The notes beneath the pieces are model-generated. The model had not been told where the DNA came from, did not search any database, and saw only the letters and a list, made by a program, of their open reading frames with translations. The position numbers and the translations under genes are program-made. A DNA stretch of 64,000 nt from Clostridia bacterium (GTDB taxonomy: Bacteria; Bacillota; Clostridia; Oscillospirales; CAG-272): the NCBI GenBank assembly GCA_017508195.1, contig JAFVZL010000044.1, positions 4,991-68,990 of the forward strand, in the 5' to 3' direction. Positions 1 through 29,281 of this stretch are shown here, one piece after another. Each line of letters begins with the position of its first letter. Positions within the stretch are counted from its first letter, which is position 1.

Positions 1-1
1 G

Positions 2-952: not shown

Positions 953-967
953 ACGGATCAATAAAAA

Positions 968-1004
968 CAAGGACTGTCAAAGGATACTTTGGCAGCCCTT
1001 TTTC
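968..1004 (+). terminator. Probable intrinsic terminator
   Basis: Imperfect stem GGACTGTCAAAG/CTTTGGCAGCCC followed by a T-run. Confidence 0.55.
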
Positions 1005-1065
1005 TATGGGAGCGAGTCCGGCGAGGCCATATGCCGACTCCCTCTTAACGAAAGAAAGGATATAT

Positions 1066-14615: not shown

Positions 14616-15806
14616 CTAATGGAAGTCTTTTTGACACAGCCCGAGAAGGGCATCCCGTTCATTCACACACTCACCGCTCATTACCGCATCGAGCAAGGAG
14701 AGAAGCGCCTTACCTATCTCCGGTCCTCTGAGACCGAGGGCGGCTATATCGTTTCCGCCGACCTTAAGCTCTGAAAGTGTATACGGTATCCCGGAAGCTA
14801 TTGCATCCTCGATTATTTCAAGGTCGAGCTTCGTTTTTTCTCCGACAAGAACACCGAGTGCAGCCACTCCGAGCGCAACCTCGGGTCCGACACTGGACAA
14901 AAGCTTCAGAGCGCCGTACCGTGTACCCGTATCCGCGTTCTTATAGTGAGAGAGCACACTTTCACCGTAAACGCGGTGTGCCGAATCGGTCTTAAGCCTC
15001 TGCATTGCGCTCGAAAATCTCTCGCGTGCATCCTTAGCATTTAATAGGAAAAGAGAAAGCAATCTCGTTTTATAGTCCATAGAGATGAAAAGCTCCCTGT
15101 CGGGCAGCTTAAGCCCATCAAGCTCGGGTAAGACCGTAAGAATGATCTCGGGGTAAGAGGATAATACTTCGTGCGCTCCGTCTGCCGAGAGAAGCTTCTT
15201 AAGTTCAACGTAAATTCTTTCGTCACTGACGTTAAGAAGAAGCGAGCGCAGCTTCGTTGCAGCCAGAGCGGTGTGCTCCTCAATAGAAAATCCGAGCTGT
15301 GAAGAAAATCTCACCGCACGCATGATTCTGAGTGCATCCTCGCGGAATCTTCTCTCAGGCTCGCCTACTGCGCGAATGACCTTAGCCCTTATATCGTCAA
15401 CGCCGCCGAAAATATCGGTATAGCCGTCACGCTCGTTATAGCAGATGGCGTTTACGGTAAAATCGCGTCTTGCAAGATCCTCGCTTAGCGATCGGGTAAA
15501 GCTAACGGCATCGGGGTGTCTTGAGTCATGATAATCTCCGTCAACACGCCAGGTGGTTATCTCGTAGCCTACACCGTCAAGCACAAGAGTCACGGTCCCG
15601 TGCTTGATACCCGTGTCAACTATTTTGCAATCTGCAAATACAGATTTCACCTCATCGGGAGTAGCTTCCGTCGTAATATCAAAATCAAAAGAGGGTCTGC
15701 CGATAAGAGCATCTCTCACCGCTCCGCCAACCACATCTGCCCGGTATCCCTGCTCATACAAGCGATCGAGTATAAGCTTCACACCTTCGGTAAGCCTTAT
15801 ATCCAT
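14616..15806 (-). CDS. cca: CCA-adding / tRNA nucleotidyltransferase
   Basis: VGGAVRD, DFD, RRDFTVNA and EDALR motifs. Confidence 0.9.
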   Translation of the reverse strand: MDIRLTEGVKLILDRLYEQGYRADVVGGAVRDALIGRPSFDFDITTEATPDEVKSVFADCKIVDTGIKHGTVTLVLDGVGYEITTWRVDGDYHDSRHPDAVSFTRSLSEDLARRDFTVNAICYNERDGYTDIFGGVDDIRAKVIRAVGEPERRFREDALRIMRAVRFSSQLGFSIEEHTALAATKLRSLLLNVSDERIYVELKKLLSADGAHEVLSSYPEIILTVLPELDGLKLPDRELFISMDYKTRLLSLFLLNAKDARERFSSAMQRLKTDSAHRVYGESVLSHYKNADTGTRYGALKLLSSVGPEVALGVAALGVLVGEKTKLDLEIIEDAIASGIPYTLSELKVGGNDIAALGLRGPEIGKALLSLLDAVMSGECVNERDALLGLCQKDFH

Positions 15807-15916
15807 TATATGCCCTCCTATTTCAATTCCCGTTATCATCAGCTCTATCCGTTTTAAAACCGGCAAGTACAAGCCAAATAACGCATATTTGTAAATAATT
15901 ATTTCCGATAAGTGTC

Positions 15917-16756
15917 TTAAATTTTAAATCTTCTGGCATATCCGCATCTGCGGCAAAGCTCCTCTGTTGCGCGCTTTTTCGAGAAGCCCATGCACATTTC
16001 CGAGGCTCTTTCCGACGTCAGGATACTGTCGATATCCTCTTCAAAAATATTGCCGAGAGGTATATTTCCCTCTCTGTCAAGGCAACACGGTACAACCGTT
16101 CCGTCAGAAAGGATAGCGAAATGATCGCCGAGCCCGTGGCAGAACACCCTCTCACCGTAGTCCGGTGCCGACATATCGGGCCAATCGAAGCGTTCCCCTT
16201 CCTCGAGGTGCAGCTTATGGCGTATCCTGGCGCCGCGCGGTCCGTATATCCAATCTCCAGCGAATTTTTCATGTAAGATGGCAACCGTGTCAATATTTCT
16301 GCCCTCGTCAACGCCCTTATTCCATAGTCTGAGGGTAGTAAGCACGCCACTGTCCGATGCCTTATCGGCAAACGCCGAGCACCCGTCGATATACGAGAGA
16401 TAATCCTCAAGACTGCCGTCCTCGAAGCTATGCACCGAGATGTTGACCTTGTAGACCCCGTGTAAAATTAAAGCCTCGCCAACCTCGGATAAAAGAGTGC
16501 CGTTCGTCGTTATTGCAACCTTCATACCTCTGTTTTTCGCAATATCAATAAGTTGCGGTAGGTCCGGGTGGAGTAGCGGCTCTCCCATTACGTGTAGGTA
16601 TACGTAGTCTGTAAGATGCTTTATCTTTTCTATTATTTCCTTGAATTCTTCCCTCTCAACAAACCTTAGAGCCCTTTTCGTGCCGGGGCAGAACGAGCAA
16701 CTCTTATTGCATACGTTGGTTATTTCTATGTAAACTCTACCGTATTTCTTCTTCAT
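15917..16756 (-). CDS. Radical SAM protein with C-terminal SPASM/twitch domain
   Basis: CNKSCSFC, GEPLLHP, TTNG, DGTVVPCC...GN...CRRC; start reassigned to ATG 16756 after GAGGGTGG. Confidence 0.9.
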   Translation of the reverse strand: MKKKYGRVYIEITNVCNKSCSFCPGTKRALRFVEREEFKEIIEKIKHLTDYVYLHVMGEPLLHPDLPQLIDIAKNRGMKVAITTNGTLLSEVGEALILHGVYKVNISVHSFEDGSLEDYLSYIDGCSAFADKASDSGVLTTLRLWNKGVDEGRNIDTVAILHEKFAGDWIYGPRGARIRHKLHLEEGERFDWPDMSAPDYGERVFCHGLGDHFAILSDGTVVPCCLDREGNIPLGNIFEEDIDSILTSERASEMCMGFSKKRATEELCRRCGYARRFKI

Positions 16757-16784
16757 CAGCCCACCCTCGGTGTATTTCGTATAT

Positions 16785-16815
16785 AAAACAAAAACCTGAC
16801 CGCGAGGGTCAGGTC
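16785..16815 (-). terminator. Terminator after the tRNA pair
   Basis: ACCTGACC/GGTCAGGT stem with a U-tail on the minus strand. Confidence 0.7.
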
Positions 16816-16822
16816 TTATGTA

Positions 16823-16907
16823 TGGTGGGGGAAGCTGGATTCGGACCAGCGAAGTCAGTGACAACAGATTTACAGTCTGCCCCCTTTGGCCGCTCGGGAA
16901 TTCCCCC
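16823..16907 (-). tRNA. tRNA-Tyr(GTA)
   Basis: GGGGGAA/TTCCCCC acceptor stem, anticodon loop CTGTAAA, long variable arm, encoded CCA. Confidence 0.95.
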
Positions 16908-16914
16908 ATACTTA

Positions 16915-16989
16915 TGGAGCTGGTGATCGGAGTCGAACCAACAACCTGCTGATTACAAATCAGCTGCTCTGCCATTGAGCCACACCAGC
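16915..16989 (-). tRNA. tRNA-Thr(TGT)
   Basis: GCTGGTG/CACCAGC acceptor stem, anticodon loop TTTGTAA, GGTTCGA, encoded CCA. Confidence 0.96.
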
Positions 16990-17005
16990 GCACCGAACAT
17001 GTAGT

Positions 17006-17034
17006 ATTATAGCAGAAGTTTTTCCCTTTGTCAA
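17006..17034 (-). promoter_or_regulatory. Sigma-A promoter of the tRNA operon
   Basis: Perfect TTGACA-17-TATAAT with TG extension. Confidence 0.85.
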
Positions 17035-17182
17035 TACCCTTTCAAAAATATTTTTCCGCTCTGCTTCGACTTATGTTTACCCTGCAGACAGCTCTCCCGA
17101 TTTGCCGTATTTCCAAGTGAGAAAAATGAACAGAGGTACGTCAATATCGTCCATATATTTTTAAAAATCTTTGTACAAATTA

Positions 17183-17211
17183 TTTACAAACGCGCGAAAA
17201 TAGTATATAAT
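17183..17211 (+). promoter_or_regulatory. Sigma-A promoter of the Sel1/FtsK locus
   Basis: TTTACA-17-TATAAT. Confidence 0.7.
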
Positions 17212-17283
17212 AGTGTTGTTTAATGGGTGCCTGCGCCTTAAAGCTGTGCACCGAAGCATTTTTTACAGAGGAGTGACGTCTAA

Positions 17284-19809
17284 ATGATTGATATTCCACT
17301 TGATACCTTGATTGAAGAATGGCTTACTAATTTTAAAAAGAGATTACATAGCTTTGATTTCGATTCTTTCAGTAAGATTTACGAGAGCTATAGCTATAAC
17401 GGTGACTGCGTGGAAGCAGCACACGAATACGACCGTAAGCTTATTGACATGCACAAAAGAGCATCAAAAAGTCCGAGAAAGTGCATATACGAGCTCATTC
17501 GTTTCCTTAAAGAGGACATTCCCGACTCTGACGTTATCGCTCACTCGGGGGTGGAGCATCTACACAAGGATCTCATATCCTTGATGGAAAATGAATGTAA
17601 GGAGATAGCGAAGGAATACGACGATAAATACCTTAAGATCATCGCTATGGAGCGCAGTTCAAGCACCAACGAAGAAGCTCTTGCTCTTATTAAAGCGCTT
17701 TCCGCTGAACCGAACGAGATACTCCGATACATCAGGATCGCAACCGAAGCTGCACTCAAAGCTCTCAGGACGAACGTAGGCTTCGAGGACAAGGCTATTG
17801 CGGTCGAGGGTGTTATCTCAAGCCTCGAAAAGTCTCAGAAAAAGGGTGCGAATCCCGCTCTCTGGTGCGATAAGGTCGACGAGATTGGGAAGAACTACTC
17901 CGCCGACGTTATCAAGGCTGCAAGAAACTATAATACATATCTTTCACTCGTTGACGATGCGATATTCTCACGCAAGGTCATCCGCTGCTCCGAGTATATA
18001 AAGGAGCTCGGAGACGGTTGGTATTTTGAGCGCGTGTACGCGCTGAACGCGGGCATAGCCGATTACAAAACAGACCTTGAAACGGTAGTTCCCGACTTCT
18101 CCGGGAAGTGGGACGCAAGGCTCGAGGATGCGAAGAAGGCATCTATCATTCAAGCCGAGAAGTGGGTGAGTGAAGCCGCTTCCGAGCGCGACAACAAAAA
18201 GAAATTCACTCTTATCGAAAAGGCGGTAAAGTACGGCAATATCAAGGCTATGGGTGAGCTCGGATATTATTTCACCTTCGGCATAGGCACCGACAGAAAT
18301 TCTGAAAAGGCGGTGCATTGGATACAAAAGGCTCTCGACTCGGGACTTGAGGACGGTTACTTCTGCTACTCTCTCGGATGGAAATACGAGCACGGTGACG
18401 GTGTGGCAAAGAACGCGACGAAGGCGTTCGAGCTCTATAAAAGAGGTGTCGGCTACTCCTACCGAGGCAACGATTGCTACCGTTCTCTCGCATACTGCTA
18501 TCTCAACGGTGTCGGTACCCAGAAGGACCCGAAGGGGGCATTCGACTACTTCACCAAGGTCGTCACTATCCTTGCGTCTCAGGAGAACTCTCAGGAATAT
18601 TATTGGCTAGGTTACCTCAAGGAGACCTCGAAGGAGGTCGGAATCGATGAGCGTGCGGCACTCGAATATTATAAGAAATCCGAGAAGCTCGGCTACGCAA
18701 AGGGTAAAGAGGCTGCGGCAAGGCTCGGTAAGCTTCTTTCCGAGCTCGATAACCTGCTATCTCTCATCGCCGCTGCCGAGAAGTCCTCTCAATCGCTCGA
18801 CTTTGAAAAGGCATACAAATGGGACGGTGAGTTTGCTAACGCGGCGCGCCGCGATACCTTCAAGTCGAGAATAGGCGAGTTCGATAAGAAATGGAAAACG
18901 GTAATGACCCATGCAAGAAAGCTCGCCGACGTCAAGGCGGAGGAGTGGTTCAGGCAGGCATACGCCATGAAGAACAGCCCTGAGCAGTACACTCTTATGC
19001 ACAAGGCGGCTATCTACTTCAACAAGAAGGCGATGGGTGAGACTGCATATTATTACTTCTACGGTCTCGGTGTTGAGAAAAACCGCGCAAAGAGCTTCTT
19101 CTGGCTTAACCGCGCACTGAATGAGTTCGGGCTCGAGGACGGATATTTCTATTGCCTTCTCGGTTGGATGCACGAGCACGGTGACTCTACTCCCAAAAAC
19201 GAGAAGCTCGCCTTCTCTCTCTACGAGAAGGGTGTAAAATTCCCATACCGAGGATTCGACTGTCTGAAGCCCATAGGATACTGCTACCTCAACGGAAAAG
19301 GTACGGCTAAGGACGATAACAAGGCGTTTGAGGTATTCTCAAGGTACTGTGATCAGACGGGCGACAAGAAATACTGTGCCGACGAATATTACTGGCTCGG
19401 CAATCTTATGGAGACCAGTGCACAGCTCGGTAAGAAGAACGAGAGAGAGGCTCTCAAATACTACGAGCTCGCAGAAAAGGCAGGCTCAGGTGCAGGCAAG
19501 ACCAACGCGACAAGACTCAGAAACAAGTTTGCAAAGATCGCACTCGATAAATCCATCGATGCCTGCTTCGCCCTCGCGCAAAAGGGTGACCCCCAGGCTA
19601 TGTTCGAGCTCGGCGAATATTACTACACGGGTAAGGGTGTAACGAGAAGCTACACCGACGCATACGCCTGGTTTGAGAAGGCGGCGAAAAAGGGCAACGT
19701 CCGTGCTATCGAGCGTCTCGGTGACTGTTACATGAACGGTCACGGTGTAAAACAGAACTACGCAAAGGCTGAAAAATACTACAATCAGGCAGCAAAGCTG
19801 TCAAGATAA
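17284..19809 (+). CDS. Sel1-like repeat protein with helical N-terminus
   Basis: Many LG..Y..G.G..KD...AF..Y.KAA units; no signal peptide; GAGGAG RBS. Confidence 0.9.
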   Translation: MIDIPLDTLIEEWLTNFKKRLHSFDFDSFSKIYESYSYNGDCVEAAHEYDRKLIDMHKRASKSPRKCIYELIRFLKEDIPDSDVIAHSGVEHLHKDLISLMENECKEIAKEYDDKYLKIIAMERSSSTNEEALALIKALSAEPNEILRYIRIATEAALKALRTNVGFEDKAIAVEGVISSLEKSQKKGANPALWCDKVDEIGKNYSADVIKAARNYNTYLSLVDDAIFSRKVIRCSEYIKELGDGWYFERVYALNAGIADYKTDLETVVPDFSGKWDARLEDAKKASIIQAEKWVSEAASERDNKKKFTLIEKAVKYGNIKAMGELGYYFTFGIGTDRNSEKAVHWIQKALDSGLEDGYFCYSLGWKYEHGDGVAKNATKAFELYKRGVGYSYRGNDCYRSLAYCYLNGVGTQKDPKGAFDYFTKVVTILASQENSQEYYWLGYLKETSKEVGIDERAALEYYKKSEKLGYAKGKEAAARLGKLLSELDNLLSLIAAAEKSSQSLDFEKAYKWDGEFANAARRDTFKSRIGEFDKKWKTVMTHARKLADVKAEEWFRQAYAMKNSPEQYTLMHKAAIYFNKKAMGETAYYYFYGLGVEKNRAKSFFWLNRALNEFGLEDGYFYCLLGWMHEHGDSTPKNEKLAFSLYEKGVKFPYRGFDCLKPIGYCYLNGKGTAKDDNKAFEVFSRYCDQTGDKKYCADEYYWLGNLMETSAQLGKKNEREALKYYELAEKAGSGAGKTNATRLRNKFAKIALDKSIDACFALAQKGDPQAMFELGEYYYTGKGVTRSYTDAYAWFEKAAKKGNVRAIERLGDCYMNGHGVKQNYAKAEKYYNQAAKLSR

Positions 19810-19821
19810 AGGAGAGGCAAT

Positions 19822-20226
19822 ATGAACGCAGCAGAAAAAGCAAGACTCGCCCGTGAGGCGCAGGAAAAGGAAAAGGCAGTATTTAAGGCTAACCTTTTCG
19901 GTAATATAATGAAGATCGTCCTTATAATAATTCTGGCAATATCCGTCGTGGCTATCGGTGCCATCGTCATTCTTGCCGAGATGCAAATGTATGATACGGT
20001 ATCGATGCTTCACGGTCCGTTTATCGGAGTGTTCGTTCTGGCGCTTATCGGTACCGTCGTCGGATTCTGGGCAATGTTCAACAACACTCAGAAGAACGAA
20101 AAGGGCGAGGGAAAATTTGATATCTTCGTATACGGCTGTATGGGCGTCGCATTTATAATGCTCATTATGGTCATGGGCTGGGCAGGCCTCGATGGAAGCT
20201 ACGAGGGCTTCGAGCTCTTCAAGTAG
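19822..20226 (+). CDS. Small 3-TM membrane protein
   Basis: AGGAGAGG RBS; charged N-terminal helix followed by three hydrophobic segments. Confidence 0.85.
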   Translation: MNAAEKARLAREAQEKEKAVFKANLFGNIMKIVLIIILAISVVAIGAIVILAEMQMYDTVSMLHGPFIGVFVLALIGTVVGFWAMFNNTQKNEKGEGKFDIFVYGCMGVAFIMLIMVMGWAGLDGSYEGFELFK

Positions 20227-20231
20227 TTCTG

Positions 20232-20374
20232 GGGAGACCTCTATCGTCAATTCAGCAGAAAAAGCAAGACTTGACCGTGAGGCAAAAGAGGAAGAAGTAA
20301 GACTAAAAAGAGAAGAAAACGCAAAAGGCGCAGTGAGAGCATCGAGAATCTCAAAGAGAATATTGACAAGGTAA
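20232..20374 (+). pseudogene. Decayed duplicate of the 5' end of the 3-TM gene
   Basis: 19-bp identity CAGCAGAAAAAGCAAGACT; translates VNSAEKARLDREAKEEE versus MNAAEKARLAREAQEKE; the ATG is lost. Confidence 0.6.
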
Positions 20375-20443
20375 TGCCAACAACTCTTGACATTCCGGTG
20401 CTATGCTATACTAATTCAAAATCTTATTTCAAGGTGAATTAAA

Positions 20444-23400
20444 GTGGAAAGTTTAACCGGGCAGCTTAAAGAGCTGCATATTCAGTATACAAAAGAGACG
20501 ACCGAGAAGGGGCGTCACTACGATAAGCTTCTCGCCGATCTTAAGAAAAAGCTTAAGGACATCGAGGCAACAGACTACGATCTGCCGTATATAAAAAGGT
20601 ATCAGGACTTTTATAACGAGCTTACTCCCTTTGTTGAAAAGATCAAGGCTATCGAGGCTAAGACTCACCATCTTGCGGGAAGGGATACTCTCGGCGGTTA
20701 CATAGACGAGCATACAAGAAGCGATACCCGCGACACGGAGTTTTATTCCAATGATGGCAGGATCGAAAGTATATTTTTCGACCGCGTGCAGTATTGCGAA
20801 CACACCCTCTCGCTTCTCGAGAAGGCAACGACGGTTGAGGAATGTCAGGGGGAGCTGAGAAATCTCGCTATTATCTATACTGAAATGAAATTTATTATAG
20901 ATAACAGCAGAAAGATCCTTGCGGATAGCGATATTCCCGGTGCAAAGAAGCGCGAGGACGTCAAGTGTGCGAAGGAAGCTATCGAAAAGGCGACACTCGA
21001 GATGCAAAAGGCTCTTAAGTTCGAGAATCTCGAGTGCTACCCTGCCCTCACCCGGCTCGTCAAGCAGTATAAGGACAATTACAAGCGCGTGTCGCGCGAT
21101 ATCCTCGGCTCGGAGAGCGAGGCGTTCTACTTCGATACCGAGTACAGGTACCTTATCGGCTTCTATAAAGAGGATATTCCCGAAGGGGATCGCAAATTTG
21201 CAAGAGATGTGCTCGGTCTATCGGATGCCGAGCTTTCAAGCCAGCCCATCTACTTCGAGCCCGAGCGCTCGCACCATAATATTATTATAAATGCGAAGGC
21301 TGCCGAGTTTGAAAAGCCTCTGTACCAGACATTTATCCGTCAGCTCTATTTCTCATTGGCGCGCCGACTGCCCGCAAACGGACTTAAGTACTCGGCTATC
21401 GCCTGCAACAAGAGCACGAACGGTATGTTCGTCTCTCATCTCAACAACTTCATCGAGAGCCTGTCAGACAACGGCTTATATATCGAGGCGGGTGTTGTCG
21501 GTGACGGCGGAAAGTTCCAGAATGCCGTAAACGATCTGCGTGAAAAGAGTCTGCACTTCAAGACCTCGGACAACTCCGATATCTATGAGTTCAACCGTAC
21601 GAGCTCGGTAGACAGAAAGCCTATGCACGTGACCTTCGTCGACAGCTACCCTATCGGTATGGATAACCACTCGGAGGGCATTGCATCGCTCGTTCAGCTC
21701 ATAATCGAGGGTAAGAGAAGCGGTTATCTCACCGTGCTCAGCCAGGCTACCGATGCATTTGAGAATATGCACTCAGGCCCCATAAAGCCTCCTCCGAAAT
21801 TTGAAAACGTCGGAAAGAAGTTCGACGCTATGGAGATATGCATCAGCGGTGATAAGGTAACCGTTGACGGAAAGCCCGCAGTGCTCGATATTGCAGCCCC
21901 GGGATTTAGCGATCGCGACTACGTTGCGTACTGGGGCAAGCTTAAGGAGTACTATAACAAGAAGGACGTATTCTATCTTGAAAAGCTCTTTGACGATATA
22001 GATACCAAGGATGCTAGAGGCAAAAGGGATGAGGAATCGGTGCTTCTCACCGGTAAGATGTCTATACCGCTCGGCTACGTCGGCACCGATCTATACGAGG
22101 CTGAATACGACCTTAACAAGGCGTGCCACGCCTTCATCCTCGGTGCATCGGGCTCTGGTAAGAGTAGCTTCTTACATACGTTTATTTTAGGAACTGCGTA
22201 CAAGTATTCTCCAAAAGAGGTAGAGTTCTACCTTGCGGACTGGAAGCGCGCGGAGCTTGAGGTATACAAGTCCCACCCCCTGCCCCACGTCAAGTATTTA
22301 CAGGATAACAGCTCTGTTTCAGAGTACGTATCGCTTCTTCAGATGCTTCTGAGGATATGCTCGCACCGTAATGCGTTGATCAGATCCAAGGGTCAGACCT
22401 CATTCCTCGGCTATAACAGAGTAGTTCCCGAGGAAGAGCGCATGCCGTTCATCTTCTTTATAGTTGACGAGTATCAGGTTATGATCGAGCAGAACAACGA
22501 GACCAACGCATCCTCGAACAGCAAGAGAATGGCTAAGGCGTGGTTAGGCCTTATGGGAAGTATTCTGGGTATCGTAAGAAGTGCGGGAATAGGCGTCGTG
22601 CTCAGCTCACAGTCGCTTGATAAGATCACCTTCGATTTTTCCAACGTTCAGAAGAGAATGCTTCTCGGTCTGAATCAGCAGCTGCTCGGTGAGCTCTGCT
22701 ATAACAACGACTCGAAGGCAAAATCCAGCGAAGCATTCAAGCAGGACGAGCAATATCTTTCGGTTGCACAGTCGGGTCACGTCGTGCTCGGCTTTGCGGG
22801 CAAGACCAAGACCGACAGGTTCCGTTCAGCTTACACGGGTGACGGAGCTATACGCGAAAAGAGCATCGACCGCATATGCGACCGCTGGTTCGAGTATGGT
22901 ATAGATATGATACTCGGCGGCAGCAAGGAGAGCTTCCCCATTACCGAGCTCACCGAACCGCCTTATTCAAGCATGCTCGACGAGGTTAAGCGCAATTCGG
23001 CATTTGATGACGACTTTGACGATTCTCCCGTCGACGATACCACCTATCCCGTATTCATAGGAGTAACCTCAAACGATACGACACCCGTACCCCTCCAGTT
23101 CAACGTCAAGGGCACGGGATATGCCGTATATACGCAATCGCCTGCCCGTATGAGAATGATCATACGCAGTGCAATGCTCTCATTCCTTTACAAGACCACG
23201 TCCTATACGCGCCGCTACGAGGCTAAACGAGAGTATTATTTCGGATCCGAGGACGACTATCTTCACGATATCGGCAGGGTCTGCCAGGCAGAGCCATTCC
23301 TCGAGCCTTATATCGAAGGCTTCGATACCGAATACGAGGTCTATAAGAGCGTGTCGGCATTCATGGATATATACCGTATCTACGAGGAGCGCAAAAAGGC

Positions 23401-24100
23401 AAGATCGCAAAGGGGAGGATTCCCACCGATGCTACTCGTTCTGCGCGACCTCGCATGGATAACCGAAAACCTCGACGATACCTACGACAGATACCGCGAG
23501 GATGCCGAGGATGCGAGAGAAAATGCAAGAGAATCCGACACGGGTCCCGATGAAAATGAGCTTTCTGCGATGATCGAGCGCATACGTGCTATGAATCCGG
23601 AGCTTTCCGATACGAAGCTGCGGGCAATGGCTTTACGCAGAATGCCTATGGCGAAGCCAAAGCCAAAAACCGAGAGCAAAATCTACTCCAAGGACGATAT
23701 CAGAGACGCACTGAAGACTCTTTACAAAGAGGGCGCGAGGTTCCGGATATTCGTTATCGCGGCATCCACTCAGCAGACGGGCTTCAAGAGTCTGCGCGAT
23801 ATCTGCTTCAAGTCAAACGACGCGCCGCTTCTGAAGTACTCGGTCTTCGGAAGCCAGCTTGAAAACGACGGTAAGTTTATTGATTCGGTCAGCGGAGACG
23901 GTGACGTTAACACCTGCTTCGTTTACCCTGCTCCCAAATCAAGACTCGAGGGCGAATCCGGTGACACCGACGGTGACGTAGGTGAGCTTACAAGACTTTA
24001 CAGGTTCGGTAAGACAGACTACGATTATTGGGATGAGCTTGAGGAAAGATTATCCGGAAAAGAAAAAAACAAAAGCATTTTGGAGGATGACGATTTCTGA
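20444..24100 (+). CDS. FtsK/SpoIIIE-family (EssC/EccC-like) ATPase
   Basis: HAFILGASGSGKS Walker A, YSPKEVEFYLADWK, IVDEYQ Walker B, RSAGIGVVLSSQ; flanked by two degenerate ATPase-like domains. Confidence 0.88.
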   Translation: MESLTGQLKELHIQYTKETTEKGRHYDKLLADLKKKLKDIEATDYDLPYIKRYQDFYNELTPFVEKIKAIEAKTHHLAGRDTLGGYIDEHTRSDTRDTEFYSNDGRIESIFFDRVQYCEHTLSLLEKATTVEECQGELRNLAIIYTEMKFIIDNSRKILADSDIPGAKKREDVKCAKEAIEKATLEMQKALKFENLECYPALTRLVKQYKDNYKRVSRDILGSESEAFYFDTEYRYLIGFYKEDIPEGDRKFARDVLGLSDAELSSQPIYFEPERSHHNIIINAKAAEFEKPLYQTFIRQLYFSLARRLPANGLKYSAIACNKSTNGMFVSHLNNFIESLSDNGLYIEAGVVGDGGKFQNAVNDLREKSLHFKTSDNSDIYEFNRTSSVDRKPMHVTFVDSYPIGMDNHSEGIASLVQLIIEGKRSGYLTVLSQATDAFENMHSGPIKPPPKFENVGKKFDAMEICISGDKVTVDGKPAVLDIAAPGFSDRDYVAYWGKLKEYYNKKDVFYLEKLFDDIDTKDARGKRDEESVLLTGKMSIPLGYVGTDLYEAEYDLNKACHAFILGASGSGKSSFLHTFILGTAYKYSPKEVEFYLADWKRAELEVYKSHPLPHVKYLQDNSSVSEYVSLLQMLLRICSHRNALIRSKGQTSFLGYNRVVPEEERMPFIFFIVDEYQVMIEQNNETNASSNSKRMAKAWLGLMGSILGIVRSAGIGVVLSSQSLDKITFDFSNVQKRMLLGLNQQLLGELCYNNDSKAKSSEAFKQDEQYLSVAQSGHVVLGFAGKTKTDRFRSAYTGDGAIREKSIDRICDRWFEYGIDMILGGSKESFPITELTEPPYSSMLDEVKRNSAFDDDFDDSPVDDTTYPVFIGVTSNDTTPVPLQFNVKGTGYAVYTQSPARMRMIIRSAMLSFLYKTTSYTRRYEAKREYYFGSEDDYLHDIGRVCQAEPFLEPYIEGFDTEYEVYKSVSAFMDIYRIYEERKKARSQRGGFPPMLLVLRDLAWITENLDDTYDRYREDAEDARENARESDTGPDENELSAMIERIRAMNPELSDTKLRAMALRRMPMAKPKPKTESKIYSKDDIRDALKTLYKEGARFRIFVIAASTQQTGFKSLRDICFKSNDAPLLKYSVFGSQLENDGKFIDSVSGDGDVNTCFVYPAPKSRLEGESGDTDGDVGELTRLYRFGKTDYDYWDELEERLSGKEKNKSILEDDDF

Positions 24101-24390
24101 TGAATAAGCAGAATAATAAGCAAATAATCGAAAAAATGCAATCTATTCTTGACATTCTGAGCAAAATGCTCGGTGATACACGCAGACTCCAGTCGGCTAT
24201 GCAGACCCAAGAGGATATGATTCGTGGCGATAACATTATGAACGATACGATGGACCGTCTGACCGAGATTAACGCCATCGTCGAGAAGATGAAGCGGAAC
24301 GCCGAGAGAGTTGCAGACAGTGTCAAGGAGGGCGCAGAGGAAGTGCGCCGCGTGCAGATCAACCGCTCTAACAACATAAGGAGGATTTAA
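24100..24390 (+). CDS. Small helical-hairpin protein, WXG100-like
   Basis: 96 aa, heptad helices around a central IRGD turn; start overlaps the ATPase stop. Confidence 0.65.
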   Translation: MNKQNNKQIIEKMQSILDILSKMLGDTRRLQSAMQTQEDMIRGDNIMNDTMDRLTEINAIVEKMKRNAERVADSVKEGAEEVRRVQINRSNNIRRI

Positions 24391-24392
24391 GC

Positions 24393-24707
24393 ATGACATT
24401 CGAAGAAGAAATATACTACGATGAAAAGGGTCTCGAAGCTCTTTATGCGGAATTCTCCGCAAAGCTTGCAACCTACATCTCGGATATGGAAGACAACATC
24501 TCCTCGCTGAATGACGTTATAGGCGAGCTTGGCAGATACTGGGACAGCGAGGATTACCGTGCATTCAAGCGCGGTATGGGTCAGGGTATCACGTCTACCG
24601 AGAGTCAGATCCAGCGCGCGATCGAGCTTAAGCACGAGATCGATCTTGCACGGGCGGAGACCGCCGCAGGTCTTGAAAAAATGCGTATAAGGTACGGCTT
24701 TGACTGA
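24393..24707 (+). CDS. WXG100-like protein
   Basis: 104 aa with central YWDSEDYRAF at the WXG position; GAGGA RBS. Confidence 0.78.
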   Translation: MTFEEEIYYDEKGLEALYAEFSAKLATYISDMEDNISSLNDVIGELGRYWDSEDYRAFKRGMGQGITSTESQIQRAIELKHEIDLARAETAAGLEKMRIRYGFD

Positions 24708-24709
24708 CC

Positions 24710-24934
24710 ATGGAAAAGCTCATATACATAAAGTCGCAGTGGAGCGATCATGTCGGTTCGTCACTCGTTAGTAAGGCTAACGACGCGGTGTACCGCATTA
24801 ACAATGCCGCATCCGATGCTATGGACGTAGTCAGGCGTGTCGAGGATACGAAGATATACGAAATAGAATTCAAGTCGAGAACACCCGAGCTTCAGGAGCT
24901 TAAGGCTCGCCTGGAGCGCGAGCTCGGTATATAA
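24710..24934 (+). CDS. Small helical protein, truncated WXG100-like
   Basis: 74 aa, SQWSDHVG near the N-terminus; tightly coupled to both neighbours. Confidence 0.6.
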   Translation: MEKLIYIKSQWSDHVGSSLVSKANDAVYRINNAASDAMDVVRRVEDTKIYEIEFKSRTPELQELKARLERELGI

Positions 24935-24943
24935 GGAGGAGTA

Positions 24944-25942
24944 ATGGCTTACTCAGATAGGGTCGATATTTGCTTCTCTCTTTCAGCTATCACAAAATTC
25001 CTTTCGGATGCGGAGTATCTTTCTGATAACGCATCGGGACTATGCGCCGAGGTCGACGCTCTCGTTGTGGGTGCAATCAATTACGTTTCGGATACTTTAG
25101 CCTATATCAAAAGCTGTCTTGACATCAACTATACCGACGGTCAGAACGCTGCGGGTTTCCGCAGATGGCTCGAGGATGCGATATGGAAGACGGAAAAAGC
25201 GCTCGAGTCACACGAGCAAAGATGCAACGATCTCGAAAAGCAGCTAAAGGCAGCAGAAAACGACCACGCACGCATACAATGGCATTCCAAGCCGGGAGAT
25301 AAGGCTTCGCTCGAAGCCCTCGAAGAAGCATCGCGAGCAGTCAGAAATGCAAAGGACGCACTAAGCAACGCATATGCCGAGCGCGACAGCTGCAAGCGCA
25401 AGCTCGGATGCCTTAAGGAGGCACGGAACTCACTCTATTGGATAGAGGATAACATCCACAAGGATTATATAATGCTTACCGACAGGGAGAATGAGTATAA
25501 CAGACTGCTTTGCGATCTTGACTCTGTATATAAAACATTCAATAAACAGTCCGAAATCGGTCAGTCACAGATAAACGAGTCGCTCGACTACTCAAAGGTT
25601 GCCCTCAGATATGCAAGGGGTGCGGTGCAACACATCGGGCAAATGATCGGTGTTGAGCCAAGTGACGATAACGAAACGAGGATAACAAGTATTGCCGCTA
25701 TATATTCTGCCGGCGACAGAATGGACAGCCTTAACCGTATGGCAAGATCCAGCAACAAGTATCTCGGACGTACAAGTGCCGAGTACAACGAGCTCGTATT
25801 AGATAACGTCGTCGGTAATGCTGCCGAGCGTATAGAGGATCTTCTCGAATATATCTCGGCTGAGATCAAAGCGAATGAGAACAAAGCAGAAAACGCCAAG
25901 GATCTCGCACATCAGCTGCAACAGTATTATGACTCCGTTTAA
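24944..25942 (+). CDS. Long coiled-coil protein with a C-terminal WXG100-like hairpin
   Basis: AAGGAGG RBS; extended heptads; ends AKDLAHQLQQYYDSV. Confidence 0.75.
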   Translation: MAYSDRVDICFSLSAITKFLSDAEYLSDNASGLCAEVDALVVGAINYVSDTLAYIKSCLDINYTDGQNAAGFRRWLEDAIWKTEKALESHEQRCNDLEKQLKAAENDHARIQWHSKPGDKASLEALEEASRAVRNAKDALSNAYAERDSCKRKLGCLKEARNSLYWIEDNIHKDYIMLTDRENEYNRLLCDLDSVYKTFNKQSEIGQSQINESLDYSKVALRYARGAVQHIGQMIGVEPSDDNETRITSIAAIYSAGDRMDSLNRMARSSNKYLGRTSAEYNELVLDNVVGNAAERIEDLLEYISAEIKANENKAENAKDLAHQLQQYYDSV

Positions 25943-26026
25943 TAAGCACTATAGATTAAGCTTTGCCCCCCCCTTATGTCACAGAAGCTCTTTTCCCGAG
26001 CTTCTCTAATAGCACGTTGTAATATT

Positions 26027-26068
26027 AAAAGGATGCATCCCGAATTGGGATGCATCCTTTTCTTTTTC
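26027..26068. terminator. Bidirectional terminator
   Basis: AAAAGGATGCATCCC/GGGATGCATCCTTTT between convergent genes. Confidence 0.85.
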
Positions 26069-26141
26069 GTGCTAAAAACTCATACCCAAAGATGTACCAT
26101 TACGGTACAAATCTTTGTTTTGTCATATTATGACGGGAAAT

Positions 26142-27926
26142 TTATGAAAATAGCGAGAGGTTCGCTATCCTTACTGCGCTATCCTTATACTTTTCAAGAT
26201 GCGAGCTCTTGCCGACGGTGGAAAGCACCTCGAAGCACACGTATCTTGCCTCAACTCTCTTAAAATCAAGTATGCTTTCGCTGCCGAGCGCCTGTATTCT
26301 GCCCGAGCGCACCTCTGTGTACTCTTCTCCACACGCGCTTACGAGTATTTTATACTCCGACACAAGCCCCGCGCTCTCCATAGAGGTGGTCCAATCGGGT
26401 CCCTTGTCCTTGCCTCTCAGTATTATGTGAGGGTAGTATCCGAGGGCGGATACGCTTCTCTTCTCTCCGAGATCTATTACTATCCTCGCCTCGGGTGCCT
26501 CTCCGTACCAGCTCTCCATAGGGTTACGGTCTATAAGCGCCGGGGCTTCCTTACCGTCGGCATAGCACACCGCCCTGCTGAGGTCTATCTCGTCGAGCTT
26601 TCTTTCGGCGTATTTATCATAAGCTCTGCTCGTAAATACGGGGGGTGACCATGTCTTTCTGCCCTCGGAGTCAATGAGCCTCAGATAGAAATACCTTGCG
26701 CTGTCGCTCCTTACGGTGAGCACAAAGGAGTCGCTATTGATATTCTCTATACATACGGGCTTTCCGTAGTCGAATATGACCTCGACGAGTATAGGTCTTG
26801 TGCTCTCGCACTCGGTGAAGTAATCGATATCGACCTTGAAGGTGTAGGTGTCGGCGTCAGAGAGGTCGCATGGAGCGAGCATGCCGTTAACCGTGTATTT
26901 CAGCTTGATATTTCCGCTCTCTGTCGCGTAAAAGCGGTTATTCACGAGAGCATCGACAAAGGCTTCGCGAGTTGGCTCGTTAGCCATTATCACGGTTTTT
27001 CCCGGCATCAGATCTATGCCCCAGTTCGAGCCGTGCGAGTCACTGCCGCAGGTGGTGCTGAGGCGGAAGCCTGCGTCAAGAGCCTGAGAATATGCGTATT
27101 CATGGAGCAGATTTTCCTTTCTGTCGGCACCGTTGCCCATCTCCATACCGCGCATTATCTCAAGCATTCTCGGGGTGTTGTTCCTCATAAAGTTAAAGTT
27201 CCATATACCGTTGGTGCTGAAGCCCACGACGTGGGGATGAGCAAATATACCTATCGCACGGGGCGACGGTGCCATATCGCGCTCAAATTCAGAAAAAGAG
27301 CGCGAGTCGGAGTATCCCGCGGAATTGATCGTAACTATCTCGCCGGATAATCTATGTAAGACACCGAGTCTGTCTACCTCTGTATATGTGACCTCGGACT
27401 CAGCCCCCGCAAAAAGCACGGTTCCCGCACCCTCGTCTGCAAGCTCGAAGCCGCGGAAGAAATCGTGGTCATTGGTAACGCCCGCGTGGTCGGAGATCAC
27501 ACCGAAGTCAAGGTCGCGATCAGCAAATACCGCGGCAGTATAATCCTCTATCAGATCCTTTTTGTGCTCGGCGAAGCTATCGGGATTGTGGTCCATCGAG
27601 GTGTGGTGATGCATATCACCGATATAGTAGTTTATCTCCTTTGAACCGTCGAAGCTCTTACGAGCTCTCGCGGTCGCCTCGAGAGTATATTTTTTGCCCT
27701 GATACTCGGCACAAACGGTGGCACTCCCCTCTCTTACAAGAGTAACTAAAGCGCCGCACCTCTCTGTGTGCCTTCCGTCTCTCTCAAATGTGCGGATAAG
27801 TGCCGCATCTCCCGTGACACTCCATTTCACCTCGGTGTATCTGTCGATACCCTCACCGACGAGCGAGACAGGAAGCACGTCGCCTACGAACGAGCATATT
27901 TTTTCTTTACTTAATCTGATTGACAT
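26142..27926 (-). CDS. PHP-family metallohydrolase with C-terminal discoidin (F5/8 type C)-like domain
   Basis: GDMHHHT, SDH, HPH and GSDSHG; C-terminal ALIDRNPMESW...IDLG...EARYV. Confidence 0.8.
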   Translation of the reverse strand: MSIRLSKEKICSFVGDVLPVSLVGEGIDRYTEVKWSVTGDAALIRTFERDGRHTERCGALVTLVREGSATVCAEYQGKKYTLEATARARKSFDGSKEINYYIGDMHHHTSMDHNPDSFAEHKKDLIEDYTAAVFADRDLDFGVISDHAGVTNDHDFFRGFELADEGAGTVLFAGAESEVTYTEVDRLGVLHRLSGEIVTINSAGYSDSRSFSEFERDMAPSPRAIGIFAHPHVVGFSTNGIWNFNFMRNNTPRMLEIMRGMEMGNGADRKENLLHEYAYSQALDAGFRLSTTCGSDSHGSNWGIDLMPGKTVIMANEPTREAFVDALVNNRFYATESGNIKLKYTVNGMLAPCDLSDADTYTFKVDIDYFTECESTRPILVEVIFDYGKPVCIENINSDSFVLTVRSDSARYFYLRLIDSEGRKTWSPPVFTSRAYDKYAERKLDEIDLSRAVCYADGKEAPALIDRNPMESWYGEAPEARIVIDLGEKRSVSALGYYPHIILRGKDKGPDWTTSMESAGLVSEYKILVSACGEEYTEVRSGRIQALGSESILDFKRVEARYVCFEVLSTVGKSSHLEKYKDSAVRIANLSLFS

Positions 27927-27970
27927 AATGCCTCCCGCGAAGAATAAAAAGGGTTATATGTAAATAATTG

Positions 27971-28375
27971 TTAACTGCAAAGATACATATCAATATCTAT
28001 TTGCGTTCTTGTTTCATGACAGAAATCGATTACATCAAGCGAAGGTGCAAGGCACGGATTGATATCGTCAACATAGATCGTAGGCACTATCTCCAAATAG
28101 AAGGATGCGCCGAATTCTTCTCTTATTCGATTAAGCACCTCTGTCTTGTCCTTTAGCGCTTCGATCGATTTTCTCATCTGATTTTCTACGTTGACGTCAT
28201 ATTCCGTGCATTTTCCGATTTCCCAGAGTGCAAAATCGTACTCTGTACCGTCGCGCCTCAGATCCCCGATTTTCAAACTTCTGTCGGGGATGAGCTCCAA
28301 CATCTCTGATACGTCATCGGGGTTAAACGCCCCGACGATCTTAAAGGCTGTATAACAAGTATTCCGGGTATCCAT
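27971..28375 (-). CDS. DUF4279-like protein
   Basis: F.PDDVSEML.L.P....KIG...W and C-terminal IDID.Y pattern; GGAGG RBS. Confidence 0.65.
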   Translation of the reverse strand: MDTRNTCYTAFKIVGAFNPDDVSEMLELIPDRSLKIGDLRRDGTEYDFALWEIGKCTEYDVNVENQMRKSIEALKDKTEVLNRIREEFGASFYLEIVPTIYVDDINPCLAPSLDVIDFCHETRTQIDIDMYLCS

Positions 28376-28431
28376 AAACCCTCCGCAATATTCTCTTTAT
28401 CGGTTAGATTATATCACACCCTCGCAAATAA

Positions 28432-28500
28432 ATCAAGGCATAGCCTTGTATATCATCAATTCTGGAGGAATTGCATATCATCAATGCATAGCATTGTATA
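28432..28500. repeat. Hairpin-linker array A
   Basis: Three CAA...TTG hairpins joined by TATATCAT and CATATCAT. Confidence 0.75.
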
Positions 28501-28554
28501 AAAAAGGACAGCATAGGTGCCCGACCCGGCAGCAATTCTGTCCTTTTGTTTGTT

Positions 28555-28797
28555 TTACTTTATCAGCTCGTCAAGTGTGACCCCGAATACTTCCGCAAAG
28601 GCTCTCAGCTCAATGTCTGTAACAAATCTCTTTCCGCACTCTATCCTCTGTATCGCGTTTTTATCAACGTCTATGCCGATAAGCTGAAGCTTGTCTGCCA
28701 GCGCCCTTTGCGAAAGCTTTGTAGAATATCCAAGCCTTAAAGCACGGATATTCTCACCGCATATATTGTTTCTTCCTTCGTCTTTGTTCTTGAACAT
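28555..28797 (-). CDS. XRE-family HTH transcriptional regulator
   Basis: GENIRALR..LSQRALA...IQRIECGKR...EL..FA..FGV. Confidence 0.9.
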   Translation of the reverse strand: MFKNKDEGRNNICGENIRALRLGYSTKLSQRALADKLQLIGIDVDKNAIQRIECGKRFVTDIELRAFAEVFGVTLDELIK

Positions 28798-28811
28798 TAT
28801 CTACCTCGCGT

Positions 28812-28890
28812 TTGACATTCAGTGATTGACATTTTAATTATATTGTGTTAAAACGATAGATATGACATTCACTAAATGTCAAGTAAATGT
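28812..28890. promoter_or_regulatory. Putative XRE operator repeats in a divergent promoter region
   Basis: TGACATT three times plus inverted AATGTCA; palindrome TGACATT-N5-AATGTCA at 28863-28881. Confidence 0.6.
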
Positions 28891-28912
28891 ATCACTGGAG
28901 AAGTAATGCAAA

Positions 28913-29095
28913 ATGAAAGATAAAATTGGAATAATAAAAGAAATTGACCGTATAGGGAGGATAGTTATACCCAAGGAATATCGCGACAGATACGGTTTTC
29001 ACGATACGATTGAGATCGTAGCTACTGAATCGGGTGTATTAATACGCAACCCCGAGTACGTTTTAAAGAAAGTAGATGACTGTAACAACAAATAG
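28913..29095 (+). CDS. AbrB/MazE/SpoVT-family DNA-binding protein
   Basis: GIIKEIDRIGRIVIPKEYR signature. Confidence 0.88.
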   Translation: MKDKIGIIKEIDRIGRIVIPKEYRDRYGFHDTIEIVATESGVLIRNPEYVLKKVDDCNNK

Positions 29096-29164
29096 TACTT
29101 TGCAATATTATGTAATGGTTTTGAAGCCCATTAATTTATAGCCCCGAATAATTATTTGCGTCTA

Positions 29165-29193
29165 TTGACAACGCCCATGCTTTGTGCTATAAT
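29165..29193 (+). promoter_or_regulatory. Sigma-A promoter of tRNA-Gln
   Basis: TTGACA-17-TATAAT with TG extension. Confidence 0.85.
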
Positions 29194-29206
29194 ATCATAG
29201 TCGCAA

Positions 29207-29281
29207 AGGGGTATCGCCAAGCGGTAAGGCAAAGGACTTTGACTCCTTTATTCGTAAGTTCGAATCTTGCTACCCCTGCCA
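29207..29281 (+). tRNA. tRNA-Gln(TTG)
   Basis: AGGGGTA/TACCCCT acceptor stem, anticodon loop CTTTGAC, GTTCGAAT, encoded CCA. Confidence 0.95.

Follow-up and report, generated by a model that had tools for sequence, protein, structure and literature searches.

Type VII secretion systems (T7SS) take their definition from a motor, EssC or EccC, that is embedded in the membrane. How should a locus be understood that keeps such a motor, probably together with clients of the WXG100 type, without the membrane part? This question is raised by a cassette of seven genes, W1 to W7, at positions 17284-25942 of a 64,000-nt stretch of DNA (the window) from a Clostridia bacterium (GCA_017508195.1, contig JAFVZL010000044.1). 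In the list of open reading frames (ORFs) of the window, all seven are intact and lie on the + strand (Table 1). We conclude that the locus is very probably a stand-alone member of a rare, mobile kind of cassette, derived from T7SS, that joins WXG100 proteins to an EssC-like ATPase lacking transmembrane (TM) segments, and that it carries this core in a new accessory configuration. An earlier note on this DNA had put the locus forward as an undescribed system. That claim has to be given up: cassettes of this kind are described by Bell et al. 2024 (eLife, PMC11090510), citing Anantharaman et al. 2012, in the available portion of the paper, so that the family is already known in silico. What is new here is the Sel1 protein, the array of 3-TM paralogs, the presence of three small proteins, and a cargo without a recognisable effector domain.

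The nature of the motor follows from the fold of W3. We modelled residues 190-1218 with AlphaFold2 (AF2); an alignment of 4 sequences gave a mean predicted local distance difference test score (pLDDT) of only 37, and the repeat with 41 sequences gave 85.6, with a predicted template modelling score (pTM) of 0.72. When this model was compared with the Protein Data Bank (PDB) by Foldseek, the top match was 4nh0, the D1-D3 region of Thermomonospora curvata EccC (E 1.7e-25; 1082 alignment columns against a chain of 861 residues; TM-scores 0.42/0.49), followed by EssC fragments and EccC D2-D3 fragments (1e-18 to 2e-16); single-domain FtsK motors (1e-15, about 340-410 columns) and TcpA ranked below EccC/EssC. 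A sequence-profile search of the PDB produced the same ranking: EccC (2.8e-12), EccC5 (2e-10), YukB (3.4e-9) and then FtsK (2.3e-7). The catalytic residues that are invariant in 34 full-length members, G572 and K573 of Walker A and D675 and E676 of Walker B, all fall in the central domain, and GK[ST] is missing from the equivalent sequence positions of domains one and three. The fold and profile matches therefore indicate that W3 consists of an N-terminal helical region and three EccC-like P-loop domains, of which only the middle one is catalytically equipped.

A Kyte-Doolittle scan of W3 found no TM segment, the sole hydrophobic stretch being the core β-strand of the P-loop domain, and a Pfam scan gave a single FtsK_SpoIIIE match (residues 554-687, E 6.4e-22) with neither an FHA nor a gamma domain. 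The protein scores far below the cut-offs of the established models, with 66.2 bits against 778.4 for NCBIfam EssC (TIGR03928) and 29.8 bits against 1566 for FtsK. Its N-terminal 189 residues may form a coiled coil; designed coiled coils were matched weakly (E 0.35-0.71). An hhalign comparison among four segments of W3 showed no similarity between domains (probability ≤1.2%), the alignment of 4 sequences being too shallow for this result to be informative.

Is the association of W3 with its six neighbours more than accidental? A word-based search of 5.8 billion proteins with W3, in which 8000 candidates were scored, returned three full-length homologues (61, 55 and 51% identity, 99% coverage) besides W3 itself and two partial P-loop matches. 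One of the homologues lies on L011, a contig of a Pumilibacteraceae metagenome-assembled genome (MAG; Clostridia), in the order Sel1 protein (839 aa), four W2-type paralogs, ATPase (1216 aa), and then proteins of 96, 104, 74 and 343 aa. Identities between this contig and the window for W1 to W7 are 49, 39 (best paralog), 61, 69, 80, 43 and 37%, the value for W7 holding over the full length and that for the W6 pair being 42-43%. The flanking genes of L011 are unrelated to those of the window. Because the same genes recur in the same order between different flanks, the seven-gene cluster goes beyond chance. The earlier note had let its proposal stand or fall with such co-occurrence in other genomes; the full seven-gene set was found in one other MAG, this one.

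We then asked whether the components that surround the motor in a canonical system are present. In the whole genome, which is 88% complete, EssA, EssB/YukC, EsaA and EsaB/YukD each returned 0 matches at E ≤ 0.1, the Pfam WXG100 family (PF06013) returned 0 at E ≤ 1, and LXG also returned 0. The earlier note had reported the first four as missing from the locus, and the observation thus extends to the genome, although its incompleteness means that the absence of partners is not proven. The only other FtsK-like frame in the genome (contig C52, 22234-22839; 1292 aa) reaches 109.5 bits against the EssC cut-off of 778.4 and is probably the housekeeping FtsK/SpoIIIE.

Two assignments to known systems were considered and rejected. 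A canonical T7SS with partners encoded elsewhere fails because WXG100, YukC, YukD, EsaA, EssA and LXG all went without a match in the 88%-complete genome. Membership in T7SSa-j fails because all ten types have a membrane-bound ATPase and W3 has no TM segment. According to the available text of Garrett, Higginson and Palmer 2024 (PMC11217815), each of these types combines an ATPase bound to the membrane (TsxC in T7SSc-j) with a WXG100 protein (TsxA) and, in most cases, a protein resembling ubiquitin (TsxB), and within that text no Sel1 protein or soluble motor appears in any of them. The description of the locus in the earlier note as divergent and T7SS-related rather than canonical therefore agrees with the EccC/EssC-like fold, the lack of TM and FHA regions, the missing T7SSb partners and the position outside T7SSa-j.

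The small proteins downstream of W3 had been called WXG100-like in the earlier note. This is moderately supported for W5 and not supported for W4 or W6: hhalign of the W5 family profile against a profile of the relatives' small proteins gave 74.5% (E 2.7e-5, 54 columns), with the W of Y-W-D-S falling on the W of the relatives' W-N-D turn, whereas W4 gave 2.2% and W6 8.1%, the latter over a 9-column W-x-D stretch only. W5 is 80% identical to its L011 counterpart and has three further homologues (84, 79 and 63%). Among 14 small ORFs beside the ATPase in distant loci, 7 have sub-threshold Pfam WXG100 matches (E 2.8e-4 to 0.063; best 21.5 bits, cut-off 27.3). A profile of ten of the relatives' small proteins matches EsxB (1.8e-6), EsxA (2.4e-4) and SAG1039 (3.7e-4) over the full length in the PDB; since numerous coiled coils of viruses and one designed helical protein (1.4e-6) are in the same list, the relatives' signal is partly generic. 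None of W4, W5 and W6 had a direct Pfam WXG100 match at E ≤ 1, and the W5 profile matched nothing in the PDB below E 0.24. Since a HMMER search of this genome with the relatives' WXG100-like profile gave no match, the link of W5 to WXG100 is carried by one profile-profile score. Judged from its sequence, W5 is probably a WXG100-like hairpin, and of the three small proteins it alone shows WXG100 affinity, to a moderate degree.

The last protein, W7, is helical in its Atlas model, which has low confidence (pLDDT 0.60); the look-alikes in the Atlas either score below 0.9 or are long helical bundles of a generic kind. A k-mer search with W7 retrieved only itself, and its sole detectable similarity is to the L011 counterpart, so that the label "cargo" derives from its position. 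In a predicted complex of W4, W5 and W6 with W7, one control scored as high as the real complex, and the prediction was not used either way. The earlier note had seen no toxin-immunity pair, and searches of Pfam, NCBIfam, PADLOC and PHROGs indeed assigned W2 and W4-W7 to no family of toxins, immunity proteins or defence proteins above threshold.

The two genes upstream of the motor set this cassette apart. W1 contains 10 Sel1 stretches (Pfam Sel1 E 6e-55) and no hydrophobic or TM segment in the Kyte-Doolittle scan; residues 269-695 are similar to residues 526-838 of the same protein, and W1 resembles both Sel1 proteins of another family locus, L118 (E about 1e-25). W2 is followed by the remnant of a second gene of its type, with which it shares a 44-nt direct repeat (19829-19872 and 20253-20296, 82% identical); the NSAEKARLDRE-type peptide motif occurs at two places in the whole genome, W2 and the remnant at 20249-20374. 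The four W2-type paralogs that occupy the W2 position in L011 are 140, 140, 124 and 127 aa long. All W2-type proteins start MNAAEKA..ARE and diverge in the membrane part, and the best pair of W2 with a paralog is 39% identical. The remnant in the window and the four intact paralogs in L011 indicate that the W2-type array grows and shrinks.

Table 1. Features of the cassette and of its surroundings in the window; residue numbers refer to W3.
Feature	Position	Strand	Description
tRNA-Tyr and tRNA-Thr	16823-16989	-	left border of the variable region with the cassette
Sigma-70-type promoter-like site	17183-17211	+	TTTACA, 17 nt, TATAAT; 11/12 consensus matches; upstream of W1
W1	17284-19809	+	841 aa; cytoplasmic Sel1-repeat protein; two tandem helical-plus-Sel1 halves
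W2	19822-20226	+	134 aa; charged N-terminus (MNAAEKARLARE...), then three hydrophobic segments (Kyte-Doolittle)
Remnant of second W2-type gene	20249-20374	+	motif NSAEKARLDRE and charged stretch; no start codon, no membrane part
W3	20444-24100	+	1218 aa; GTG start; TM-less EssC/EccC-like ATPase
W3 helical N-terminal region	residues about 1-225		limits approximate, from the DSSP string of the AF2 model; 1-189 outside the model
W3 first, degenerate P-loop-like domain	residues about 236-489		limits approximate, from DSSP of the model
W3 active central domain	residues about 538-829		Walker A GASGSGKS 567-574; Walker B D675, E676
W3 third, degenerate domain	residues about 867-1189		limits approximate, from DSSP of the model
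W4	24100-24390	+	96 aa; helical, central IRGD turn; 69% identical to L011 counterpart, turn region invariant
W5	24393-24707	+	104 aa; turn YWDSED (Y-W-D-S-E-D-Y); most conserved gene of the set
W6	24710-24934	+	74 aa; helical, W-S-D (QWSDH) near N-terminus; W-G-D in L011
W7	24944-25942	+	332 aa; all-helical; at the position of helical-N-terminus/toxin-domain proteins in relatives
Intrinsic terminator-like hairpin	26027-26061	+	16-pair stem, 7 GC pairs, 3-nt loop, T-rich tail; closes the operon
tRNA-Gln	29207-29281	+	right border of the variable region

The layout of the genes is compact. The gaps W3-W4, W4-W5, W5-W6 and W6-W7 measure -1, +2, +2 and +9 bp, W1 and W2 are 12 bp apart, and 217 bp separate W2 from W3. 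The promoter-like site and the terminator-like hairpin are the best + strand candidates of their kinds within 15000-29000; the former, by its match to the consensus, is a putative promoter of W1. In these respects the earlier note was accurate: seven co-oriented genes between a promoter at 17183 and a terminator at 26027, the last five closely joined, and, next to a 1218-aa ATPase, three proteins of 74-104 aa whose translations contain IRGD (W4), WDS (W5) and WSD (W6). Inside the 217-bp gap, TGCTATACT at 20404-20412 is an extended -10-like element 32 bp 5' of the W3 start and could be an internal promoter of W3-W7; the match is not significant by itself, because it occurs once in the window and at least once in 35 of 100 shuffles.

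The cassette sits in a variable region between tRNA genes. The distance from tRNA-Tyr/Thr to tRNA-Gln is 12.2 kb in the window, compared with 3.0 kb in congener L136 and 0.5 kb in congener L137; of the other two of the four congeners compared (L134-L137), L135 reaches its contig end shortly past tRNA-Tyr/Thr and L134 has unrelated sequence past them. W1, W3 and W7 are absent from all 4 congener stretches. The GC content at the cassette is not deviant. A prophage or an integrative and conjugative element as the origin was rejected, because no phage or conjugation genes are nearby and no family member lies on viral contigs. The tRNA-bounded stretch (16823-29281) also holds an F5/8-type-C protein (26142-27926), a DUF4279 protein (27971-28375), an XRE-type helix-turn-helix gene (28555-28797) and a MazE/AbrB-like gene (28913-29095). 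On its left side, the listed 358-aa ORF at 15917-16993 overlaps both tRNA genes; the real radical-SAM/SPASM gene is a shorter frame that ends near 16750. Near-identical DNA (at least half of the sampled words) is present in 9 listed sequencing runs, all animal gut metagenomes by their records, of which 5 may be the source of the assembly and the other 4 represent three studies.

To place the cassette within its family, we searched 1.84 billion representatives with a profile of the N-terminal half of W3, which omits the P-loop motif, and obtained 43 proteins at E ≤ 1e-3 (35 at ≤ 1e-10, 21 at ≤ 1e-30), 31 of them 1107-1218 aa long and 12 shorter pieces. None of the 40 genomes of relatives had a match outside the P-loop domain. 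A family ATPase was found in 2 of 398 other genomes of the class (G126 and G117), and the N-terminal profile matched in 0 of 400 other genomes sampled across the phylum. A wider alignment (A4) gave 25 matches on viral contigs, all confined to the P-loop domain, and the close-family alignment (A1) gave none on metagenome or viral contigs. A protein-language-model search with the N-terminal half of W3 pointed, as a lead only, to Campylobacterota clusters at 0.94-0.95. The distribution of the ATPase family is thus rare, patchy and island-like.

The metagenome scan refers to the best 80 loci, in 70 of which the ORF caller found a complete ATPase. Nine of these loci (L047, L048, L050-L052, L055, L089, L112 and L118) carry family-like ATPases, 1131-1161 aa long, with Walker A at 574-607 and no TM segment in the same hydropathy scan; most of the others are EssC-like, of about 1455-1480 aa (gut samples), or 2-TM EccC-like, of about 1300-1410 aa. 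The ATPases of about 1455-1480 aa (within L053-L122, for example L056, L062 and L070, several from human gut) have the same Walker A signature and a conserved gene order: about 300 aa (3 TM), about 60, about 184, about 340 and about 384 aa upstream, and about 350, about 84 and about 293 aa (3-4 TM) downstream. Most of them have no TM segment by the hydropathy scan, and they may be a T7SS variant or another membrane-less form.

The neighbours of the ATPase in distant family loci show what may occupy the place of W7. Four such loci were scanned with Pfam for the genes that follow the small proteins, and in three the next protein has a toxin-type domain: a 322-aa protein in L045 and a 398-aa protein in L118 carry the glutamine-deamidase toxin domain PF15644 (3e-8 and 8.6e-12) and precede ORFs of 83 and 93 aa, and a 257-aa protein in L055 with a WXG-like N-terminus carries a DUF6782/SprT-like Zn-metallopeptidase domain (2.4e-6) and precedes an ORF of 97 aa. 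The corresponding 427-aa protein of the fourth locus, L044, has no recognised domain. The 1113-aa ATPase of L045 is recognised by the family profile in regions other than the P-loop domain (E 6.4e-55) and comes after genes for a VWA protein, a PP2C phosphatase and a 2-TM protein kinase. Other loci differ in their repeat proteins: L118 has two Sel1 proteins and a small 4-TM protein, L112 has TPR and LRR proteins, and L089 has an LRR protein. In 3 of 3 Sel1-bearing loci (the window, L011 and L118), a very small sample, Sel1 proteins co-occur with small polytopic membrane proteins.

A further set of neighbours recalls ubiquitin-like conjugation. Pfam identified Prok-JAB and ThiF/E1 in L055 and L112 and ThiF/E1 in L118; in L089 the assignment rests on N-termini similar to JAB/E1 proteins, by sequence likeness rather than by a Pfam scan. 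In all four loci (L055 4027-6743, L089 3481-6064, L112 4483-7012, L118 3556-6128) the ATPase is preceded by a protein of 154-182 aa without a Pfam match, Prok-JAB and ThiF/E1, and the position of the 154-182-aa protein suggests that it is E2-like. The occurrence of such a set beside a motor of the T7SS kind deserves notice, since canonical T7SS also contain a ubiquitin-like protein, YukD/EsaB, whose presence is unexplained.

What, then, does a secretion motor do without a channel? We tentatively favour the reading that the cassette is an intracellular conflict machine of the defence type, not an exporter across the envelope. The reason is threefold: TM segments are absent from the family ATPases; the loci have no conserved membrane protein in common; and the sensor-type repeat proteins and signalling neighbours are typical of conflict systems. 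In L044, L055 and L089 the listed neighbours, at most 6 genes ahead of the ATPase and at most 8 behind it, include no membrane protein at all. The lack of T7SS partners in the 88%-complete genome, the E1/JAB genes and toxin-type domains in relatives, the patchy, island-like distribution and the occurrence of the same kind of ATPase inside CoCoNuT defence loci (Bell et al. 2024) also speak for this reading. The earlier note had offered two alternatives, a minimal exporter and a cytoplasmic system with the Sel1 protein as an adaptor, and these are the two readings retained here, the second with some preference and the first as a competitor of nearly equal probability.

An intracellular machine of this kind might work as follows. 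W3 would assemble into a hexamer like other FtsK/EssC ATPases, held by the N-terminal helical region, and its degenerate C-terminal domain would dock the WXG100-like W5 (with W4 and W6), as D3 of EccC docks EsxB. W4-W6 would hold the helical cargo W7 inert in a bundle, a role that falls in relatives to a toxin of the glutamine-deamidase or peptidase type. Once W1, the Sel1-repeat protein, has read a cue, ATP hydrolysis in the central domain would pull the bundle apart and free the cargo. The freed cargo would act on the membrane from its cytoplasmic face, either together with the W2-type 3-TM proteins or by way of them; the conserved N-terminal peptide of these proteins is a likely docking site for W1. 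The outcome would be growth arrest or death of the infected cell. Put in evolutionary terms, and in a form that we regard as possible but rather speculative, the cassette could be a T7SS motor minus its channel, rebuilt as a cytoplasmic, Sel1-triggered machine that deploys a toxin against the cell's own membrane, or else, no less novel, a split T7SS in which the 3-TM proteins make up the channel and Sel1 repeats, by binding their conserved N-terminal peptide, tether it to the motor.

Several observations weigh against the intracellular reading. No experimental test for any family member was found in the available parts of the literature on the cassette, and the function of all members is inferred. 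EssC/EccC and WXG100 proteins are otherwise known only from secretion, and the toxin domains of the relatives, each with a small ORF, look like exported polymorphic toxin-immunity pairs. The cassette itself encodes membrane proteins and could be a true exporter, and a set of four W2 paralogs, as in L011, would be unusual if W2 were either an effector or an anchor. The nearest neighbours of the cassette are housekeeping genes or small genes without an assigned role and do not form a defence island. In PADLOC-DB 2.0 no defence model was matched beyond the P-loop: W3 matches SspH and mad8 at that level only, and the match of the W1 Sel1 region to PtuA covers 42 residues. VWA, kinase and PP2C genes do not by themselves argue for defence, because they are also core parts of the secreting T7SSc, by the available text of PMC11217815. 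The molecular roles assigned above also meet negative results: the HMMER search with the WXG100-like profile and the hhalign comparisons of W4 and W6, both given above, returned nothing in their favour, and W7 has no recognisable toxin or enzymatic domain in Pfam, NCBIfam, PADLOC or PHROGs, scores 0.8% in hhalign against the relatives' mid-size proteins and has no match in the PDB.

The chief competitor, which we consider nearly as likely, is a minimal true exporter, in which a soluble EssC-like hexamer tethered to the membrane pushes a bundle of W4-W7 across the single membrane of a Gram-positive-type cell. The tether might be direct, or W1 might provide it by way of the N-terminal peptides that the W2-type 3-TM proteins carry. 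On this reading W7 would be a helical, possibly membrane-acting antibacterial or surface protein, and the W2 paralogs would form either the channel or an array of immunity proteins. T7SS toxin loci have immunity arrays that look much like arrays of paralogous small membrane proteins, and the likeness of the W2 array to these speaks for export. So do the homology of W3 to a secretion motor, the match of the relatives' WXG100-like small proteins to the structures of secreted EsxB and EsxA, the polymorphic-toxin-type domains followed by small ORFs in relatives, and the small polytopic membrane proteins that stand directly 5' of the ATPase wherever a family locus has Sel1 proteins, in the three cases of the window, L011 and L118. 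The stand-alone form was also called a secretion system by Anantharaman et al. 2012, as related in the available portion of Bell et al. 2024 (PMC11090510). However, every family ATPase scanned is free of TM segments, no membrane component is conserved across the family, partners of the EssB, EsaA, EssA and YukD types were not found in the 88%-complete genome, and no immunity-like gene lies between W7 and the terminator. Members are, moreover, present in diderm Campylobacterota and Vibrio according to the available literature, where an exporter spanning one membrane would not reach the outside.

We regard it as improbable that the cassette is a nucleic-acid-handling module of a mobile element, in which the FtsK-like ATPase pumps or processes DNA in transfer, partition or a restriction-linked role, with the helical proteins as accessories. 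The FtsK-superfamily fold and the presence of the TcpA coupling protein and FtsK motors among the fold matches agree with this idea, but the best matches in both sequence and fold are EccC/EssC rather than FtsK or TcpA. The tRNA-flanked, island-like site would suit a mobile element, and by the available literature relatives lie beside nucleases and McrBC-type restriction genes; yet no relaxase, integrase or replication gene occurs in or beside the cassette, and the family has no member on viral contigs, where the 25 matches are to the P-loop only. In L044, a separate 366-aa FtsK_gamma protein (9793-10893, - strand; E 6.4e-22) lies directly 5' of a family ATPase that has no gamma domain; W3 likewise has no gamma domain. 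Least probable of all is a decayed or orphan type VII remnant or a chance cluster without joint function, for although the decay of one W2-type gene is plain, family members are very scarce and no RNA run is listed for the stretch, the seven reading frames are intact and tightly spaced between one promoter-like site and one terminator, they recur in the same order at 37-80% identity between the different flanks of L011, and the catalytic residues are invariant across 34 diverged members.

The two leading readings differ in what they would mean. If the cassette is an exporter, it would be the smallest working T7SS shown, and new channel proteins would be identified; if the intracellular reading is true, a secretion motor would have become a device for immunity or suicide and would join the other defence systems in which old machines find a new use. 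The version in the window, for which an animal-gut Clostridia MAG is the source, is convenient to express and dissect, because it is a compact set of seven genes with one promoter-like site and a terminator and without the kinase, ubiquitin-like and restriction modules of its relatives. The Sel1 protein and the 3-TM array with its conserved N-terminal peptide provide a concrete binding hypothesis.

It is instructive to compare the cassette with known systems, beginning with the more distant ones. The central domain of W3 is a P-loop motor of the same superfamily as FtsK/SpoIIIE and TcpA; unlike these, W3 has no N-terminal membrane domain and no gamma domain, and it has two extra degenerate domains. 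In Helicobacter pylori, 'minimal type VII' genes of the WxG + FtsK kind (HP0062/HP0066 type) and a TerY-P island are described in the available portion of PMC4978471. These share with our locus an FtsK-like ATPase paired with a WXG100 protein, in our case the probable one W5, without other T7SS parts, in accessory islands; by that description, to which the comparison is confined, they differ in that the host belongs to another phylum and is diderm and in that nucleases and a DnaK homologue take the place of partners. The small helical proteins of the cassette adjoin a larger helical protein, an arrangement also found for LXG toxins and their small partners. The W3 motor resembles that of T7SSb-j, as far as the available text of PMC11217815 describes it, in having three P-loop domains, and its best PDB matches are EccC, EssC and YukB. 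In contrast to T7SSb-j, it is soluble and its active domain is the middle one; TsxB, EssB, EsaA and EssA were not found, and every protein stays below the Pfam threshold for WXG100. VWA, kinase and PP2C genes, which the same text lists as core parts of T7SSc, are shared with the relative L045.

The closest comparison is with the cassette of Bell et al. 2024 (PMC11090510), which we know from the available portion of that paper. Its authors describe TM-less EssC homologues in which an N-terminal coiled coil replaces the FHA and TM regions and only the central of three ATPase domains is active. The ATPase lies beside two WXG100 proteins, only one of which has the WxG motif, a nuclease fused to a coiled coil, and a protein that resembles DNA mimics, and such loci are VWA-flanked extensions of Type III-A CoCoNuT (McrBC-type) defence loci. 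They consider that the absence of TM domains makes a mechanism other than classical secretion appear likely, and they cite Anantharaman et al. 2012 for the operon being mobile and possibly a stand-alone secretion system. Our locus agrees with that account in many respects: W3 lacks TM and FHA regions and has, behind a long helical N-terminus, three P-loop domains of which the central one alone is active; the ATPase is followed by small helical proteins, of which W5 is probably of the WXG100 type, with the W motif present in one and missing from another, and then by a helical protein; and a unit of this kind is described as mobile and able to stand alone. The family locus L045, with its VWA, PP2C and kinase genes, resembles the VWA/TerY-P-flanked cassettes. 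In contrast, and as far as that description goes, genes for VWA proteins, kinases, phosphatases or McrBC-type proteins are missing from the window, neither a nuclease nor any other effector domain is recognisable in W7, and no inhibitor-like gene comes after W7, the terminator being next. The window also has three small proteins instead of two, and to the cassette as described it adds the 841-aa Sel1 protein and the W2-type 3-TM proteins.

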